From: an uncultured archaeon
GTDB lineage: Archaea; Iainarchaeota; Iainarchaeia; Iainarchaeales; GCA-2688035
Direction: 5' to 3'
DNA length: 64,000 bases
Assembly (NCBI GenBank): GCA_964354805.1
Contig: CAYHBD010000009.1
Span: forward strand, 32,001 to 96,000
Shown here: positions 2,177 through 50,922 of the stretch, one piece after another
How positions within the stretch are numbered: the first letter of the stretch is position 1
Layout of the letters: each line of letters opens with the position of its first letter
Position numbers and translations under genes: made by a program
The notes under the pieces: model-generated
Told to the model about the DNA's origin: nothing
Databases searched by the model: none
The model's input: the letters and a program-made list of their open reading frames with translations, nothing else

Positions 2177-3259
2177 ATGAAAAGTTTGGTTGGAAGCGCA
2201 ATGGGAAAAAAAACACCAAGCGCTGAAAAAGACAATGAAGAATTCGAGCAATTGAAGATAATGGTGATTGGAACAGGCGGAGGAGGCTGCAACACAATAA
2301 ACAGGCTTGCGAAAAAAGGAATAAGGGGAGCACAACTGTTTGCTGTCAACACAGACAAGCAGCACCTTGCAATAATTGATGACAGTGTATCAAAAATCCT
2401 GATTGGAGAAACAGTTACAAGAGGCCTGGGCGCCGGCGGTTACCCTGAAATCGGCCACAAGGCAGCTGAAGTCAGCAAATCAAAGCTTGAAGAAGCCCTG
2501 CAAAGAGTTGACATGCTTTTCTTGGCAGCAGGAATGGGCGGAGGCACTGGAACAGGCTCAGCACCGGTTATTGCAGAGATCGCAAAAGAGCAGGGAGCAA
2601 TAGTGATAAGCGTTGTAACTTACCCTTTCAATCTGGAGAGAGCAAGAATAGTGAAAGCGGAAGAAGGAATACAACAGTTGAGCAAAGTATCTGACACGGT
2701 TATAGTGATTGACAACAACAGGCTCGCGCAGCTTGTGCCGAACCTGCCGATTCAGGACGCGTTCAAGGTTGCCGATGAAGTGATTGCAGCTGCGGTAATT
2801 GGAATAACCGAAACAATAACACAGCCTTCTTTGATTAACCTGGATTTCGCTGATGTAAGGGCAATAATGTCAAACAAGGGCCTGAGCCTGATTGCAGTCG
2901 GGGAAAGCAAGGCAAATGACAAGGTCAATGCAGTTGTAGAGGACACATTGCACAACATGCTTTTGGATGTTGACATAAGCGGGGCAAAAGGCGCACTGAT
3001 TCACATAACAGGCGGGCCTGATTTAACGCTTGGAGAGGCAAATGCAATCGGAGAAAAGCTGACTGACAGGATTGACAGCAAAGCAACAGTCATTTGGGGC
3101 GCAAGGATTGACCCAACCTTTGAAAACAGGGTTGAGGTAATAGCAATCTTCACAGGGGTTTACTCGCCGTACATCACCGGAACAAAGAAAGAGGAACAAT
3201 TTGCAACGTCCTTTGCATCAAGGGGCAAAAAAAGCGAATTGGATTTAGGCTACGCTTAA
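2177..3259 (+). CDS. ftsZ: Cell division protein FtsZ
   Basis: GTGGGGCN, AVNTD, GMGGGTGTG tubulin signature, INLDFADV; SD GGGGTGA. Confidence 0.98.
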   Translation: MKSLVGSAMGKKTPSAEKDNEEFEQLKIMVIGTGGGGCNTINRLAKKGIRGAQLFAVNTDKQHLAIIDDSVSKILIGETVTRGLGAGGYPEIGHKAAEVSKSKLEEALQRVDMLFLAAGMGGGTGTGSAPVIAEIAKEQGAIVISVVTYPFNLERARIVKAEEGIQQLSKVSDTVIVIDNNRLAQLVPNLPIQDAFKVADEVIAAAVIGITETITQPSLINLDFADVRAIMSNKGLSLIAVGESKANDKVNAVVEDTLHNMLLDVDISGAKGALIHITGGPDLTLGEANAIGEKLTDRIDSKATVIWGARIDPTFENRVEVIAIFTGVYSPYITGTKKEEQFATSFASRGKKSELDLGYA

Positions 3260-15833: not shown

Positions 15834-18026
15834 ATGGGCAGAAGAGAGGACATGGTGCATCTTGCAGAAAGCATGATGCAACAAAGAGAGCACATCAGGA
15901 ACATCGGAATAGTTGCCCACATTGACCACGGCAAAACAACAATGACAGACAACCTGATTGCAGCAGCAGGCCTTATCAGCGAAGAGCTTGCGGGAAAACA
16001 GCTGTTCATGGACTTTTATGAACTGGAACAGCAGAGGGGCATTACAATCAATGCAGCAAACATCAGCCTTGTTCACAAGCTTGGCGGAGAGGATTATCTG
16101 ATCAATGTAATTGACACACCAGGCCACATTGATTTTGGAGGAGAGGTAATCAGGGCAATGAGGGCTGTTGATGGCGTTGTGGTTGTTGTTGATTCTGTGG
16201 AGGGGGTCATGCCACAGACTGAAACAGTTGTAAGGCAGGCTTTAAGGGAGCGAGTAAAGCCAGTTCTTTTCATAAACAAGGTTGACAGGCTGGTCAACGA
16301 ACTGCAGCTGAATGCAGAGCAAATGCAGGAACGCTTTGTCAAGACAATTACACAGGTAAACAGGCTGATCAAAAACAATGCGCCGAAAGAATTTGCCGAA
16401 TCCTGGCAGGTTAAGGTAAATGATGGATCGGTTTCATTCGGCTCTGCCTACCACAACTGGGCATTGAATGTCCATTCAATGAAAGAAACAGGCATTAGCT
16501 TCAAGGACGTTTACGATTACTGCAAGAAACAAGACCAGAAAACCCTGGCAAAAAAGAGCCCGCTGCATGCAAGCATTTTGGGAATGGTTGTGCAGCATTT
16601 GCCAAACCCGATGCAGGCACAAAAATACAGGACAACGACAATCTGGGCAGGCGAACTGGAAAGCGAAGTAGGCAAGGGAATGCTTACTTGCGACGAAAAC
16701 GCGCCTTTCGCAATGATGGTAACAGATGTAACGGTTGACCCGCACGCCGGAGACATTGCAACAGGAAGGATTTACAGCGGCGCAATCAAAAGCGGGATGA
16801 AAGTGAAACTTATCGGAGGCCAAAAAGAGGTAACAGTGCAGCAGGTTGTTATCTTCATGGGCCCGGAAAGGGTGACAGTACAGAAGGTTCCATGCGGAAA
16901 CATCGCTGGCCTGGTTGGAATTAAAGAAATCTGGGCAGGTGAAACAGTCAGCAGCGTTGACATGCCGACATTTGAAAGCTTCAAAAGCACTGCAGAACCA
17001 GTTATGACTGTAAGCGTTGAACCAAAGCAGACAAAGGATTTGCCGAAATTGATTGAGGTAATAAGGCAGATTACAAAGGAGGACCCAAACGTTGTTGCTT
17101 CATTGAACCAGGAAACAGGTGAGCACCTGTTGAGCGGCATGGGCGAACTGCACTTGGAGGTAACACAGTACAGGATTGAAAAGGACCACGGCATTCCAAT
17201 TGATGTTTCAACGCCAATTGTTGTTTACAGGGAAACAATCAGAAAAGAAAGCCCGACTTTGGAGGGAAAGAGTCCAAACAAGCACAACAAATTCAAAATG
17301 AGCGTAGAGCCAATTGAAGAAGAGGTGCTGCAGAAGCTGATTGAGGCAAAGATCCAGAAAAAAATCAAGCCAAAGGACAAGGAAATGATTGCAAAATTCG
17401 AGCAAATGGGCTTTGACAGGGACACATCAAGGCGCATCTGGTACGTCCACAACAACAACATTTTTGTTGACATGACCAGAGGCATTGTTGCATTGTTTGA
17501 AATAAAGGAAATGGTTATCCAGGCATTCCAGGATGCAATGAATGAAGGGCCTCTTGCAAAAGAGAAGTGCTTCGGTGTCAAAGTAATCCTGCATGACACA
17601 ACATTGCACGAGGATTCAATCCACAGGGGTCCTGCACAGGTTCTGCCTTCGGTCACCAGAACAATCTTTGCATGCATGCTCAGCGCTGACCCGATTATTT
17701 TGGAGCCAAAGCAAACCCTGTTCATTACGGTTCCACAGGATTACATGGGGGCTGTTTCAAAAGAGCTTGGCCAGAGGAGAACTCAAATCAGCGAAATGAA
17801 GCAGGAGGGAGACGCCTCAATCTTCATTGCAAAAGCGCCAGTGAAAGAGCTTATTGGCTTCAGCGCGAGCATAAGGGGAGCAACACAGGGAAGAGCAATC
17901 TGGACAGCAGAATACGCCGGCTTTGAGCCACTGCCGAGAGAAATGCAGAAAGGCGTGATAGCAGAAGTGAGAAAAAGAAAAGGCTTGGACCCGGAGCCAA
18001 AAAGCGCGGCGTTTTTCTTGGAATAA
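15834..18026 (+). CDS. fusA: Elongation factor 2 (aEF-2)
   Basis: AHIDHGKTT, RGITI, DTPGH, NKVD, diphthamide motif HEDSIHRG. Confidence 0.98.
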   Translation: MGRREDMVHLAESMMQQREHIRNIGIVAHIDHGKTTMTDNLIAAAGLISEELAGKQLFMDFYELEQQRGITINAANISLVHKLGGEDYLINVIDTPGHIDFGGEVIRAMRAVDGVVVVVDSVEGVMPQTETVVRQALRERVKPVLFINKVDRLVNELQLNAEQMQERFVKTITQVNRLIKNNAPKEFAESWQVKVNDGSVSFGSAYHNWALNVHSMKETGISFKDVYDYCKKQDQKTLAKKSPLHASILGMVVQHLPNPMQAQKYRTTTIWAGELESEVGKGMLTCDENAPFAMMVTDVTVDPHAGDIATGRIYSGAIKSGMKVKLIGGQKEVTVQQVVIFMGPERVTVQKVPCGNIAGLVGIKEIWAGETVSSVDMPTFESFKSTAEPVMTVSVEPKQTKDLPKLIEVIRQITKEDPNVVASLNQETGEHLLSGMGELHLEVTQYRIEKDHGIPIDVSTPIVVYRETIRKESPTLEGKSPNKHNKFKMSVEPIEEEVLQKLIEAKIQKKIKPKDKEMIAKFEQMGFDRDTSRRIWYVHNNNIFVDMTRGIVALFEIKEMVIQAFQDAMNEGPLAKEKCFGVKVILHDTTLHEDSIHRGPAQVLPSVTRTIFACMLSADPIILEPKQTLFITVPQDYMGAVSKELGQRRTQISEMKQEGDASIFIAKAPVKELIGFSASIRGATQGRAIWTAEYAGFEPLPREMQKGVIAEVRKRKGLDPEPKSAAFFLE

Positions 18027-18090
18027 GCCGCTGTTTCTAATCTACTTGCTAAAATAGTTTCCTTCAGCCTAATTTTACCAATTGACCGCA

Positions 18091-18114
18091 AGGGTTACGT
18101 TATAACGTAACCCT
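18091..18114. promoter_or_regulatory. Perfect 24-bp palindrome AGGGTTACGTTATAACGTAACCCT abutting a TATA-like TATATAAA
   Basis: Self reverse-complementary; core TTACGT-N4-ACGTAA recurs at 25940-25955. Confidence 0.55.
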
Positions 18115-18164
18115 ATATAAATGGCAAAAAAACAGCGCAGTTCTTTTTGGAATAAAAAGGGCGG

Positions 18165-23864: not shown

Positions 23865-24284
23865 ATGTTTGAGTTATTCGAGCACAAGGCAGACATTGGA
23901 GTAAGAGGCATTGGCAAAAGCAGGGAAGAAGCTTTTGCAGAATGCGCAAAGGCAATGTTCAGTTTCATAGCTGATTTGAAAAAAATTGAGGCAAAACAAT
24001 GGAACGAGATTGCGGTTGAAGCAGGCGATTTGGAAACGCTTTTGGTTAATTTTTTGAATGAATTGCTTTACCTAAAAGATGCAGAAGGAATGCTGTACAG
24101 CAGGTTTGACGTATACATAACCGAAGAGGCCGGGAAGCAGGCGCTGAAAGGAAAAGCGGGCGGCGAAAAAGCGGACAAAAAAAAGCACGCGCTCAAAGCC
24201 GATGTGAAAGCTGCTTCCTTTCACCAATTGAAGGTTGCAAAGGAAAAAGGCAAATGGATTGCGCAATGCGTTGTGGATGTTTAA
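23865..24284 (+). CDS. Archease
   Basis: EH.ADIG, L...LNELLY, VKAASFH, terminal VDV; adjacent to rtcB. Confidence 0.95.
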   Translation: MFELFEHKADIGVRGIGKSREEAFAECAKAMFSFIADLKKIEAKQWNEIAVEAGDLETLLVNFLNELLYLKDAEGMLYSRFDVYITEEAGKQALKGKAGGEKADKKKHALKADVKAASFHQLKVAKEKGKWIAQCVVDV

Positions 24285-24327
24285 ACACCTTTTCTTTTAG
24301 AAAAAGAAAAGCTGTACAAAAAGAAAA
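24285..24327 (+). repeat. REP-like hairpin family copy (ACACC...GCTGT variant)
   Basis: ACACC-TTTTCTTTT-ag-AAAAAGAAAA-GCTGT-ac-AAAAAGAAAA, directly after the archease stop. Confidence 0.7.
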
Positions 24328-24363
24328 TAAAAACATGGCAAAATAATTGAAAAAGGCATATTT

Positions 24364-25797
24364 ATGGATTTCAAAAAATTGGGAAATGCGCTCTGGGAAA
24401 TGCCCAAAGAAGCAACAATGCGTGTCCCTGCCAGAGTTTTTGCAACAGAGAAACTTTTCAAGGAAATAGAGCAGGGGGCAATGCAGCAGCTGGTTAATAC
24501 AGCAGCCCTGCCAGGAATTCAGACAGCAGCGCTTGGAATGCCTGACATGCACTGGGGGTATGGATTTCCAATTGGCGGAGTTGCTGCATTTGATGCAAAA
24601 GAGGGCGGTGTTGTCAGCCCTGGGGGGATAGGTTTTGACATCAACTGCGGAGTTCGCCTGATCAGGACAAACCTTTCGGCACAGGAAATAAAGCCCAAGG
24701 TGCGCGAATTGATTGATGTTTTGTTTAACCTTGTTCCGGCAGGTGTTGGGGGGAAAGGGAAAATTAAATTGAATGAAGCGCAGTTGAGGGAGCTGCTGCA
24801 GCATGGGGCGCGCTGGGCAGTGGAGAATGGCTATGGCTGGGAAAAAGACTTGAAACACATTGAAGAGAACGGCGAAATGAAAGGCGCAAATCCTGCAAAG
24901 GTTTCCCAAAAGGCATTGCAGAGGGGAATGCCCCAAAGCGGCACTCTCGGCAGCGGAAACCATTTCCTTGAAATCCAGAAGGTTGAGCAGGTTTTTGACG
25001 AAAAGATTGCAAAAAAATTCGGCTTGTTTCAGGGGCAGGCAGTGGTAATGCTGCACTCAGGAAGCAGGGGCTGCGGCCACCAGATTGCGACTGATTACAT
25101 TGATGTAATGCTTAATGCAATGCAAAAATATGGCATCAGCGTTCCTGACAGGCAGCTTGCCTGCGCTCCGATTGAAAGCAAGGAAGGCCAGGATTACCTG
25201 CTGGCAATGAACTGCGGCGTGAACTATGCATTTGCAAACAGGCAGGCAATGATGCACTGGACAAGAGAAGGGTTCGCACAAATTCTTGGACAAGATGCTG
25301 AAAAGCTCGGCATGGATCTGGTTTACGATATCTGCCACAATGTAGCGAAATTTGAACAGCACGAAATCGGCGGAAAGAAAAAAGAGGTTTTGATTCACAG
25401 GAAAGGAGCCACAAGGGCAATGCCTGCAGGCAGGAAAGAGAACCCCGCTGATTATATGCTCACAGGGCATCCTGCAATAATCCCAGGCAGCATGGGAACA
25501 GCCTCTTATGTGGTTGTTGGAACTGAATCTGGCTTGAAAGAAGCATTCGCTTCTGTAGCACATGGAGCAGGACGCGCAATGTCTCGCACAAGCGCAATGA
25601 AGATGAAGCGCGGTGAGCAGGTGAAAAAGGAGCTTGAAGCAAAGGGCGAGGTTGTAAAGGGTGCCTCATGGGCCGGCCTGGCTGAAGAGGCTCCCGAAGC
25701 ATACAAGGACATTGATGAAGTAATCAAATCAATCGAGCTGGCGGGAATTGGCTTAAAGGTTGCAAAAATGGTGCCATTGGGAGTAATGAAAGGCTGA
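24364..25797 (+). CDS. rtcB: RNA-splicing ligase RtcB
   Basis: MPDMHWGYGFPIG, GFDINCGVR, GTLGSGNHFLE, HSGSRG, HNVAK, PGSMG, HGAGR, EEAPEAYK. Confidence 0.98.
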   Translation: MDFKKLGNALWEMPKEATMRVPARVFATEKLFKEIEQGAMQQLVNTAALPGIQTAALGMPDMHWGYGFPIGGVAAFDAKEGGVVSPGGIGFDINCGVRLIRTNLSAQEIKPKVRELIDVLFNLVPAGVGGKGKIKLNEAQLRELLQHGARWAVENGYGWEKDLKHIEENGEMKGANPAKVSQKALQRGMPQSGTLGSGNHFLEIQKVEQVFDEKIAKKFGLFQGQAVVMLHSGSRGCGHQIATDYIDVMLNAMQKYGISVPDRQLACAPIESKEGQDYLLAMNCGVNYAFANRQAMMHWTREGFAQILGQDAEKLGMDLVYDICHNVAKFEQHEIGGKKKEVLIHRKGATRAMPAGRKENPADYMLTGHPAIIPGSMGTASYVVVGTESGLKEAFASVAHGAGRAMSRTSAMKMKRGEQVKKELEAKGEVVKGASWAGLAEEAPEAYKDIDEVIKSIELAGIGLKVAKMVPLGVMKG

Positions 25798-25939
25798 CTC
25801 GCATTTGGTATTGAAAGGGCATGCAATACCATGTTCCGCTTGGGGTAATGAAGGGGCAGGATTCTACAGCAAGGCAGGCTTATAAAGTGGTGTTGAAACA
25901 GCTCCAAACCCCAAAAAAATAGCCCTTAAATTAACTTTT

Positions 25940-25965
25940 TTACGTGAATACGTAATATTTAAATA
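25940..25965 (+). promoter_or_regulatory. Inverted repeat TTACGT-gaat-ACGTAA plus TATA box TTTAAATA upstream of the surface-protein gene
   Basis: TATA ends about 22 nt before ATG 25987 (leaderless-type spacing). Confidence 0.5.
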
Positions 25966-25986
25966 CTACTTGCTACGCTAATTCTT

Positions 25987-44679: not shown

Positions 44680-45189
44680 ATGGTATTCATCAGCCCGGCA
44701 ATAGACATCGGCCTGATTTCAGTGGCCCTGGTAGTCGTCAGCAGGTTTTTGCAAAGCAAGTTGGTTGACAAGGAAAAACAGAAAGCAGCCCAGCAGAGAA
44801 TGAAGGAAAAACAGAAAAGAATGAAGGAATTGATTGCAAGCAATGATGAAAGAAGCAAAAACGAGGCAGCTGCCCTGCAGCGGGAAATGTTCGCTGAAAT
44901 GGGTGAAAGCATGCAGGGAAGCATGAGGTACATGATGGTGAGCCTGCCGTTTTTCCTGGTTGTGTATGCAGCGCTTGGGTTCCTTTATGGCGGGCTTTAT
45001 TTTGATGCACTTTTCCCAATTCCAAAATTCCAAGGCATTATCCCAGTCAGCCTGACAACCAAAACAGGCTGGTTCAAATGGTATTTTTTCAATTACCTGA
45101 TTGCATCAATTGTTTTGGGAATTATAATAAAGGTTTGGGCAAAATCAAGGGAAGAAAAAAAAGCGGGATTAAATGCCGAAGCGAAGTGA
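44680..45189 (+). CDS. EMC3/TMCO1 (DUF106, Oxa1-superfamily) membrane protein
   Basis: TM, coiled coil, TMs, GW..WY; conserved position downstream of secY. Confidence 0.85.
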   Translation: MVFISPAIDIGLISVALVVVSRFLQSKLVDKEKQKAAQQRMKEKQKRMKELIASNDERSKNEAAALQREMFAEMGESMQGSMRYMMVSLPFFLVVYAALGFLYGGLYFDALFPIPKFQGIIPVSLTTKTGWFKWYFFNYLIASIVLGIIIKVWAKSREEKKAGLNAEAK

Positions 45190-45300
45190 AAGATAAAAAA
45201 AAATCAAAAAAAAGGTTAAAAGCAAAGAAAAGAAAAGGTAAACAACAAACTGAAATGAAAAAAAACTGAAAAAAAAGAAAAGCAAAAAAAGTGGTGTTAA

Positions 45301-45636
45301 ATGCCGAAGCGAAGTGAAAGATCAAAGAAAAAGAAATTCAGGAGAAGGCCAAGCGGAAAAGCCGAGGCTGTTTATGTCAGGGGCAAGCCAGGAAAGCACC
45401 ACTGCGCCCTGTGCGGTGCAGTACTGCACGGCATGCCGCACTCAAAAACAGCGGCTGAAGTGAGAAAGCTGAGCAAAACCCAGCGAAGGCCAAGCGCTTT
45501 GTTTGCAGGCACTTTGTGCACCAAATGCAGGACAATTGTGGTTGAGGAAGCTGCATTGCTGAACTGCGGTGCAAAGCAGCAGCAGGACATTGAATTGCGC
45601 TTGCGGAAATTCGTGCAAGCGGTTAAGGTGATTTGA
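45301..45636 (+). CDS. rpl34e: 50S ribosomal protein L34e
   Basis: R.PSG, CALCG..LHG.P, LSKT.RRP...F.G.LC.KC. Confidence 0.92.
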   Translation: MPKRSERSKKKKFRRRPSGKAEAVYVRGKPGKHHCALCGAVLHGMPHSKTAAEVRKLSKTQRRPSALFAGTLCTKCRTIVVEEAALLNCGAKQQQDIELRLRKFVQAVKVI

Positions 45637-50131: not shown

Positions 50132-50689
50132 ATGGAAACCGGAAAAGAAGAAGCAATTGACGCAGAAGAGCAGCTGGCAGCTGCGGATGCAGCTGTTGCA
50201 CCGGCTGCACCTGTAAAACAGCCTGCGAATGCACAGGCGGAAACCGAAGGCCCTGCTGCAGTGCCTGCCAGAAAAAAGAAGCACAAAAGAAAAACAGGCA
50301 TGAATGTCAAGGCAAAGAAGAAAACAGCTGTTGCAAGGGCAACAGTGAGAAAGGGCAGCGGAAAAATCAAAATCAACCATAGGCTGCTGCAATTGTTCGA
50401 GCCAAATTATGTAAAGCAGTTCATCACCGAACCGGTTTCAATCGCCGGCGATTTGGCAAAACAAGTTGACATTAATGTGCATGTGAAAGGCGGAGGCGCA
50501 ATGGGCCAGGCTGTTGCAGCAAGAGGCGCGATAGCAAAAGCCCTGCTTTTGTACAGCAGGGACCACAAACTGCGCAGCACTTTCCTGACTTACGACAGAA
50601 TGCTTTTGGTTGATGACGTGAGAAGGGTTGAACCAAAAAAGCCCTTGGGAACAAAGGCAAGAAAGAAAAAGCAGAAAAGCAAAAGGTAA
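50132..50689 (+). CDS. rps9: 30S ribosomal protein S9 with Ala-rich N-terminal extension
   Basis: KKTAVARA, V.GGG.MGQA.A.R.AIA, YDR.LLV.D.RR.EPKK. Confidence 0.96.
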   Translation: METGKEEAIDAEEQLAAADAAVAPAAPVKQPANAQAETEGPAAVPARKKKHKRKTGMNVKAKKKTAVARATVRKGSGKIKINHRLLQLFEPNYVKQFITEPVSIAGDLAKQVDINVHVKGGGAMGQAVAARGAIAKALLLYSRDHKLRSTFLTYDRMLLVDDVRRVEPKKPLGTKARKKKQKSKR

Positions 50690-50735
50690 GCCTTTTCTTT
50701 TTTAAAAAAAAGAAAAGCCTTGTGAAAAGAAAAAA
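50688..50735 (+). repeat. REP-like hairpin family copy
   Basis: AAGCC-TTTTCTTTTTT..AAAAAAGAAAA-GCCTT-gtg-AAAAGAAAAA, overlapping the rps9 stop. Confidence 0.7.
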
Positions 50736-50922
50736 TGGAATCAAGGAGAAAGAAAAAGCAGAAAAGCAAAAGGTGAAGAAGAGCAGAATCAACTGAAACA
50801 GGAAAAATGACGAGGATAAAAAAAATGATTTAAAAATGAAGTTAATTAAAAAAAATAAATTCAAATCAAACAATAAAAAAAATTAATGCAGACAAAAAAT
50901 GAAAAAAATGGAGGGTGTGAAA

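Follow-up and report, generated by a model that had tools for sequence, protein, structure and literature searches.

The DNA considered here, called the window throughout (64,000 nucleotides at its full length), belongs to the 1.38-Mb, 49-contig genome of an uncultured DPANN archaeon and carries an rtcB gene, encoding the tRNA-splicing RNA ligase, whose last codons are present twice. The gene occupies 24364..25797 on the forward strand, as do the features described below unless stated otherwise, and it is intact, its open reading frame (ORF) translating into 477 aa. It ends in a live tail, designated tail C (25771..25797), with the sequence GTG CCA TTG GGA GTA ATG AAA GGC TGA, i.e., the last eight codons VPLGVMKG followed by a TGA stop. 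A second copy, GTT CCG CTT GGG GTA ATG AAG GGG, is located at 25833-25856, offset by 62 nt and in a different reading frame, and also spells VPLGVMKG. The two copies differ at 7 of 24 nt (G/T, A/G, T/C, G/T, A/G, A/G and C/G), distributed over six codons, and every one of these differences is synonymous. Homology extends to the preceding ATG, with one G lost from the second copy (ATGGTG vs ATG-TT), and the former stop codon of this copy now reads CAG; with these additions the relic tail, designated tail A, spans 25831..25859 (ATG(-G)TT CCG CTT GGG GTA ATG AAG GGG, ex-stop CAG). A spacer of 35 nt (25798..25832) separates the two tails, and the ancestral 3' flank of rtcB (25860..25985) follows the relic and extends to a TATA-like box and the beginning of the gene that comes after. 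The live end, the second copy, their coordinates and the seven exclusively synonymous differences had all been described in the original prediction made from the letters of this DNA, and that description is borne out.

Chance is excluded as the origin of the second copy, on four counts. Matches of 17/24 or better in the 200 nt downstream arise in just 5-10 of 1242 control comparisons; seven random substitutions preserve the octapeptide in at most 5e-6 of simulations; the copy and its flank are orthologous to the rtcB end of a close relative, L033; and the spacer itself holds a third tail copy, partial and decayed. This third fragment (25802..25818; CATTTGGTATTGAAAGG vs CATTGGGAGTAATGAAAGG; repeat family D2) gives p = 0.003 in local alignment against shuffled sequences and is more eroded than the distal relic. 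The simulated probability, together with the match of the relic to live alleles of relatives, also supports the earlier proposal that the two copies would have diverged while both were coding.

Which of the two copies is the resident one? Relatives of this rtcB at 97-78% identity exist; those labelled 'Candidatus Diapherotrites' or 'ainarchaeum' in the sources are DPANN archaea, and the homologues are reported to match PF01139 (Pfam). L033 (NCBI GCA_030692205.1), with an RtcB 94% identical to that of the window at the aa level, has a single tail, ATG GTT CCG CTT GGG GTA ATG AAG GGA TAG, continued by aattctactgcaaggcaggcttataaag..., and the flank behind this tail is the one found behind the second copy in the window: the window flank is collinear with the 102 nt past the L033 stop, up to the contig end, and the last 45 nt are identical. 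L033 therefore offers an empty site, with one tail directly before the shared flank. In a MAFFT alignment, a clean 62-nt gap is present both in L033 and in L032 (RtcB 97% identical at the aa level; DNA about 90% identical to the window) opposite 25771..25832, that is, opposite an extra piece made up of the live tail, its stop and the 35-nt spacer, and the second copy aligns with the live tails of both relatives. The borders of the extra piece are ambiguous by 2-3 nt (AT/G/GT microhomology). The relic differs from the L033 live tail at 1 of 24 nt, plus a 1-nt deletion (GGA/GGG, TAG/CAG), and from the L032 live tail, GTC CCG CTT GGG GTA ATG AAA GGG, at 2 of 24 nt. Tail C differs from these A-type tails at 7-9 of 27 nt (18-20/27 identical), and its closest match is the tail of L034 type, from a lineage with 78% identity (24/27). 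Because the single tail of L033 and its flank match the relic and its flank across the 62-nt gap, the alignments identify the second copy as the resident end of rtcB, in its original place. They likewise establish that the live tail is of a different allele type from the resident, being of non-A type and followed by a spacer that is absent from L033 and L032. The direction of the event is thereby fixed, as names can be put to the empty site (L033), to the alleles that share the type of the old tail (L032, L033) and to the closest counterpart of the new one (L034). The tail consensus of the clade itself is KM[VIA]P[LM]GVMKG. A reading of the relic as HVPLGVMKG, resembling KH[VL]PLAVMKG of the wider family, was considered and rejected, since the 'H' arises only because the loss of one G from ATG(G)TT shifts the frame.

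Recombination has made a mosaic of the final 270 nt of rtcB. Out of 149 differences between window and L032 in rtcB, 49 are packed into 180 nt (P < 0.001). The longest run identical to L032 measures 98 nt (25675..25772; nt 1312-1409 of the gene; P = 0.002 if the 149 differences were spread evenly), ends where the tails begin and is followed by seven differences within the last 27 nt of the gene. It stops exactly where the homology of tails and flanks stops, which is what a recombination tract halting at the border of homology would look like. A divergent patch of 86 nt, mostly synonymous recoding, lies at 25553..25638 (gene nt about 1190-1275); here the window stands apart at 28 informative sites in a row, with 62-65% identity to L032/L033 (otherwise roughly 90%) and no more than 73% to any of the alleles sampled. 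This patch looks like a short tract acquired from a family-level relative. A test of rtcB for breakpoints, which had been proposed along with the prediction, detects significant recombination breakpoints and demonstrates that the gene is mosaic; such a pattern implies that short tracts of quite diverged relatives have been written into rtcB more than once.

Similar scars are found at other rtcB loci. In a scan of 116 loci for relic tails, with a score defined as matches out of 24, four lineages (the window, L032, the L034 type and L078) reach at least 16/24, the control maximum being 15. L032 has a relic of its own, TTT CCG CTC GGT GTA ATG AAG GGC TGA, 60 nt downstream, with an unrelated spacer and different genes after it. 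In the 78%-identical lineage, encountered in four samples (L034, L035, L036 and L040), the relic GGG GTA ATG AAA GGA TAA is placed behind a 59-nt spacer. In L078, the RtcB of which is about 53% identical at the aa level, ATG AAG CCG ATG ATT GTT GTG AAA GGA TAA occurs 45 nt past ATG CGT CCT ATG ATT GTT GTG AAG GGA TGA, and the same type of scar thus exists well outside this family. The spacers of the four lineages are mutually unrelated, which makes these four independent events; the relic offsets are 62, 60, 77 and 75 nt by lineage, and the relic frame differs among them. Counted over the four relics, synonymous differences affect 13 codons and non-synonymous ones 2 (V/F, R/K), as expected of tails that diverged as working alleles and not of copies that decayed neutrally in place. 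Taken as a record of past events, these relics show that tail displacement of the same kind has recurred in other lineages. The architecture is seen in independent assemblies, namely in L034, L035, L036 and L040, which stem from different samples, and in two contigs for the L032 protein. The L078 relic (2920-3025 of that locus, metagenome contig Ga0172381_10017000) is in frame, reading MKPMIVVKG and a stop after MRPMIVVKG and a stop, and sits behind a 7-bp hairpin, TTTGAAC-AAA-GTTCAAA.

Repetition of gene ends extends to the genome as a whole. When the last eight codons of each of 1242 crude ORF genes are compared with the next 200 nt at a threshold of 17/24, 78 genes have such an echo, and 32 do at 19/24 or better. 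At these two levels, the controls give 5 and 0 (reverse-complemented flank), 10 and 1 (random-gene query) and 14-19 and 2-3 (internal and upstream comparisons). The excess is confined to about the last 8 codons and to the direct orientation; it is absent from codons -16 to -9 and weaker at gene starts than at gene ends. Typically, the copy is shifted by 55 nt (median; range 30 to 129 nt), behind a spacer of 4 to 102 nt, and the homologous stretch starts about 27 nt (median) before the stop codon and goes no further than it, the stop being kept in 42 of 51 echoes. Of 48 spacers, about 14 are similar to neighbouring DNA (coding sequence in 8, flank in 6) and 26 are orphans. Such a mixture suggests that the set comprises plain tandem duplications as well as events like that at rtcB. 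A lack of any genome-wide excess of synonymous relic ends had been named in the original prediction as a ground for refuting it; as regards the excess of relic ends the outcome is in its favour, 78 genes standing against 5-19 in controls. Genome-wide, however, only 56 of 168 differing codons (33%) are synonymous and 112 are non-synonymous. The purely synonymous pattern at rtcB is due to the strong conservation of the RtcB tail and is not typical of echoes overall. Among sampled relatives, echoes are found in 11 of 311 genes of G004 (control 2), in 1 of 192 of G038 and in 0 of 216 of four others; dozens of echoes here and fewer or none there point to a lineage-specific habit of recombination or repair, one that genomes alone would suffice to measure.

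Examples of other echoes within the window lie at 50663/50750 (50663-50776; 25 nt exact, TAA vs TGA), at the EF-2 tail (18000/18129; 18000-18152) and at the DUF106/rpl34e junction (45163/45291; 45163-45314). The two youngest echoes of the genome have 25 identical bases and different stop codons, and they flank a repeated hairpin element, GCCTTTCTTT..AAAGAAAGGC then TTGTGAAAGAAA. This element stands directly after stop codons and tRNA 3' ends, with sites at 24285-24330 of the window (the archease-rtcB spacer) and at C9:82690, C16:23273, C18:234, C11:2313 and C2:29866 of this genome (G000). Inside the youngest echoes it looks like the native flank of the donor allele. The notion that the element itself makes long target duplications was discarded, flanking repeats being present at only 2 of its 11 copies.

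How might a gene come to own a new end and still keep the old one behind it? We consider it probable that the resident rtcB end was displaced by an out-of-register join of DNA from a diverged allele, a process of the type called homology-facilitated illegitimate recombination (HFIR) or 'recombination at the border'. Incoming DNA from a diverged rtcB allele would have contributed its own last eight codons and TGA stop, along with some 35 nt of the 3' flank native to that allele. One side would have been joined by homology in the gene body and the other by an illegitimate join just upstream of the resident tail, and the out-of-register join would have left a 62-nt insertion before that tail. The RtcB protein is unchanged, and the insertion would have been kept because the incoming piece ends the protein correctly, while the old tail would have become untranslated DNA that is now decaying, having lost 1 nt and had its stop turned into CAG. 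The source of the spacer is probably the donor's own 3' flank; neither the spacer nor the 62-nt insert has a second copy across the 1.38-Mb genome. On the simplest reading of the eroded fragment at 25802-25818, the donor flank would already have held an older, decayed piece of tail, left by an earlier echo in the donor. At the junction, ..CAATACCAT/GTTCCG.. (reading ..ACCAT/GTTCCG, the slash marking the join) compares with ..AAAATG/GTTCCG in the resident; only 2-3 nt (AT/G) are common to both, which argues that the join was illegitimate, and an imperfect TGCAA..ATG similarity lies upstream of it. The position of the gene is also of relevance. RtcB is encoded at the edge of a conserved block (EF-2, EF-1alpha, S10, RpiB, archease, rtcB) with a variable region beyond, and in the window, L032, L034, L037 and L039 the rtcB stop codon is the exact point at which gene order ceases to be conserved; rtcB may be prone to displacement because exchange tracts must end there.

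Two routes had been suggested at the outset. Displacement by an allele, with one homologous anchor plus an illegitimate join, has gained from the empty site in L033, the types of the tails, the breakpoints and the microhomology of 2-3 nt. An element carrying a replacement 3' end, by contrast, is not supported: the insert measures 62 nt and occurs once in the genome, and neither an integrase nor another mobility gene lies close by. We infer, on sequence grounds, the HFIR-type mechanism and the provenance of the spacer from the donor's flank; the join may first have arisen in this lineage or in another, and an echo, once present, could be passed on by ordinary homologous recombination. We read the relic as a neutral, harmless scar; nothing supports a working function of its own.

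HFIR, or 'homologous recombination at the border', is reported from Acinetobacter, S. pneumoniae, P. stutzeri and E. coli conjugation (PMC3240628; originals cited in PMC5361080). The likeness consists of one homologous anchor, presumed in the case of rtcB, one join at a few bases of microhomology, short foreign DNA trapped in between and a location at the edge of a conserved block. However, HFIR stems from bacterial laboratory transformation and conjugation and is rare, whereas the rtcB case is deduced from the natural sequence of a DPANN archaeon. Unlike in those cases, the rtcB insert is only 62 nt long, the join lies inside a gene, the tail is doubled, and 4-6% of the genes of the genome are marked in this way. 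Another parallel is provided by C-terminal displacement in rearrangement hotspot (Rhs), contact-dependent inhibition (CDI) and type VI secretion system (T6SS) genes (Jackson et al., 2009, cited in PMC5361080), including T6SS effector loci (Kirchberger et al., 2017, PMC5361080), where an incoming 3' end shifts the old one downstream as an orphan relic, in some cases serially, with the newest next to the gene. These systems swap different toxin tips along with immunity genes under diversifying selection. At rtcB, in contrast, both tails encode the same octapeptide, there is neither cargo nor evident selective gain, and no immunity or toxin gene of the Rhs/CDI/T6SS type fits between or after the tails.

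Several observations weigh against displacement by a diverged allele. A DNA search of 196 genomes of the order did not find a donor with tail C and the spacer and without the relic; it returned tail-level similarity only, in two other families (G165, G055), and the spacer was unmatched. Nor was a second record of the window's own arrangement found, which rests on one assembly. The left, homologous breakpoint cannot be placed, a later L032-like tract overlying it. The spacer holds a partial copy of the tail and shows a faint similarity to sequence located 28 nt past the relic (p = 0.01, uncorrected, in 12 tests), so some local duplication may have contributed. On the genomic scale, some 14 of 48 echoes have the look of simple tandem duplications, and the mismatches in echoes, at 72:57:94 by codon position, are only mildly enriched at the third; not every echo thus needs to have the same origin. 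Finally, experimental demonstrations of HFIR come only from bacteria (PMC3240628; original work cited in PMC5361080).

Could the tail simply have been duplicated in place? Microhomology-mediated tandem duplication, or replication slippage, followed by divergence or gene conversion of the first copy, would be tolerated since the first copy keeps the stop codon; short duplications of this kind persist where they are neutral (PMC13167724, PMC8639346), and one that straddles a stop leaves the protein intact. Such duplication probably explains part of the genome-wide echoes. In about 10 of 51, at least 85% of the repeat unit is homologous, the spacer resembles adjacent coding sequence in 8 and flank in 6 of 48, and the glmS echo, with a unit of 45 nt, is near-tandem and absent from two relatives. 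At rtcB itself, the partial tail copy in the spacer also speaks in its favour. Nevertheless, the second rtcB copy does not begin at the end of the first, and homology accounts for about 27 nt of the 62-nt step. The 35-nt spacer does not significantly resemble the preceding coding sequence (p = 0.25), and the first 28 nt of the flank are non-homologous as well. Moreover, it is the relic that is almost unchanged relative to L033 and L032, whereas the live tail has acquired 7 synonymous changes beside 98 nt identical to L032; stepwise change in place would not yield such tails, and the differences between the copies are not random with respect to codon position. In short, a tandem duplication would leave contiguous copies, a spacer copied from neighbouring DNA and a single allelic type, and rtcB departs from it in all three respects, making this origin unlikely for the rtcB relic. 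Two specific derivations of the spacer were rejected separately: as a decayed copy of upstream rtcB coding sequence it fails to reach significance in each of the four lineages (p = 0.11-0.77), and as a copy of the flank it is merely a displaced weak match (p = 0.01, uncorrected for 12 tests). The glmS echo (L165 1865-1955, contig C2 of this genome) reads LAKSVTVE and a stop twice, with 3 synonymous differences, directly before the start of an acetyltransferase gene, and two relatives (L167, L168; 87-90% aa identity) have a single copy; the two copies in this genome are too alike to tell which is the resident.

Alternatively, tails may be replaced in steps of about 50-60 nt by a dedicated or semi-dedicated process, be it a small mobile cassette, duplication of an integrase-type attachment (att) site or ectopic Cas1-like integration. 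The regular genome-wide architecture would suit such a process (about 27 nt of homology, a median shift of 55 nt, the stop kept in 42/51), and so would the 25-nt exact repeat around the hairpin element in the two youngest echoes. Yet shifts of 30 to 129 nt and spacers of 4 to 102 nt amount to no ruler; the spacer at rtcB occurs once in the genome; only 2 of the 11 hairpin elements are bracketed by repeats; and the tails differ like alleles and not like fresh target duplications. We regard a dedicated process as very improbable. No integrase, reverse transcriptase or other mobility gene is found near rtcB, a genome-wide search for Cas1 or reverse transcriptase not having been made. Individual candidates of this class were dropped: a Cas1-like ruler mechanism, on account of the variable shift and spacer lengths; an integrative element with an att site in the 3' end of the gene, there being only 35 nt between the copies and no integrase among the neighbours; and a diversity-generating retroelement, the mismatches not being confined to template adenines and no reverse transcriptase being encoded among the rtcB neighbours. 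Insertion accompanied by long target duplication (Nobusato, 2000, described by Furuta et al., 2010, PMC2853133) offers a direct repeat of tens of bases, longer than the target duplication of a transposase, around inserted DNA, the lack of a mobility gene and some repeats that overlap gene 3' ends. The inserts described there are kilobase-sized restriction-modification units between near-identical repeats (for example 44/46), whereas at rtcB there are 35 nt between repeats that differ at 7 of 24 positions, in the manner of diverged alleles.

A working role for the downstream copy and its hairpin, as a 3' untranslated region or terminator, as a small ORF (25821..25922, 33 aa) or as a tRNA-type intron, seems hardly tenable, even though relic tails with an intact peptide recur in four rtcB lineages. 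The inverted repeat GGTATTG N10 CAATACC, with arms of 7 bp (25807..25830, no strand assigned; arms at 25807-25813 and 25824-25830), is indeed present as originally described, but it is no notable structure: the predicted RNA fold of 25755-25875 has z = +0.5 relative to shuffled sequences, and the minimum-energy fold omits the repeat. No bulge-helix-bulge motif, with its two 3-nt bulges around a 4-bp helix, is seen in the fold, a terminator scan found no terminator-like site, and Rfam gives zero matches in the whole window. The relic frame varies by lineage, the relic of the window lacks one base and its stop, and L033 does without the extra piece. As for a tRNA-type intron, excision of 62 nt would add 22 residues past an otherwise universal terminal KG; an archaeal bulge-helix-bulge mRNA intron was dismissed on the same extension and on the fold. 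The relic does fall within an ATG-to-TAG frame of 33 codons (25821-25922; MQYHVPLGVMKGQDSTARQAYKVVLKQLQTPKK, then the stop). This frame is probably fortuitous, and no equivalent of it is present in L033. Finally, a tandem assembly of two co-assembled strains is scarcely credible: the arrangement of the window is known from one assembly only, but its parts overlap by just 2-3 nt, which no assembler would join, the spacer is of neither L033 nor L032 type, and equivalents recur in independent samples (L034/L035/L036/L040; the L032 protein).

The neighbourhood of rtcB comprises the gene for its archease partner (23865-24284) upstream and an orphan ORF of 558 aa downstream, with rpl3 also among the neighbours; no tRNAs are detected in the window. 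Several relatives (G003, G008, G023, G030, G033 and G038; loci L020-L022 and L029) carry an intein in RtcB after about residue 94-95, with open frames of 980-1000 aa, or of about 611 aa with PF14890 in the case of a mini-intein; RtcB of the window is devoid of an intein. At locus L008 (G021:C36), RtcB ends in ..VPLAVMLGFVGTGE and a stop in place of ..VPLAVMKG and a stop, and a small deletion seems to fuse the stop region with the start of a downstream membrane-protein gene, which is either a natural variant of the C terminus or a sequencing error near the contig end.

What does the scar tell us about its bearer? The rtcB relic is an unusually well resolved natural example, and the best-resolved instance, of a habit that appears to be lineage-wide: one scar among dozens in the genome, recording frequent and imprecise exchange of DNA. 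It shows an essential DPANN gene receiving patches in the form of short tracts from considerably diverged relatives, some of which are inserted out of register. A practical corollary is that echoes are easily mistaken for small ORFs, terminators or regulatory hairpins during annotation. It is conceivable, though we advance this tentatively and with some doubt, that the lineage practises unusually permissive short-patch recombination, with tracts of roughly 50-130 nt, alleles diverged by up to about 35% and resolution at a few bp of microhomology. The rtcB locus, with its divergent patch of 86 nt, identical run of 98 nt and insert of 62 nt, fits such a mode. If this were true, the shift of about 55 nt between live end and echo, which 4-6% of genes display, would correspond to the length of the incoming tract, and echoes would let tract length and the rate of exchange be read from the genomes of uncultivated DPANN archaea.

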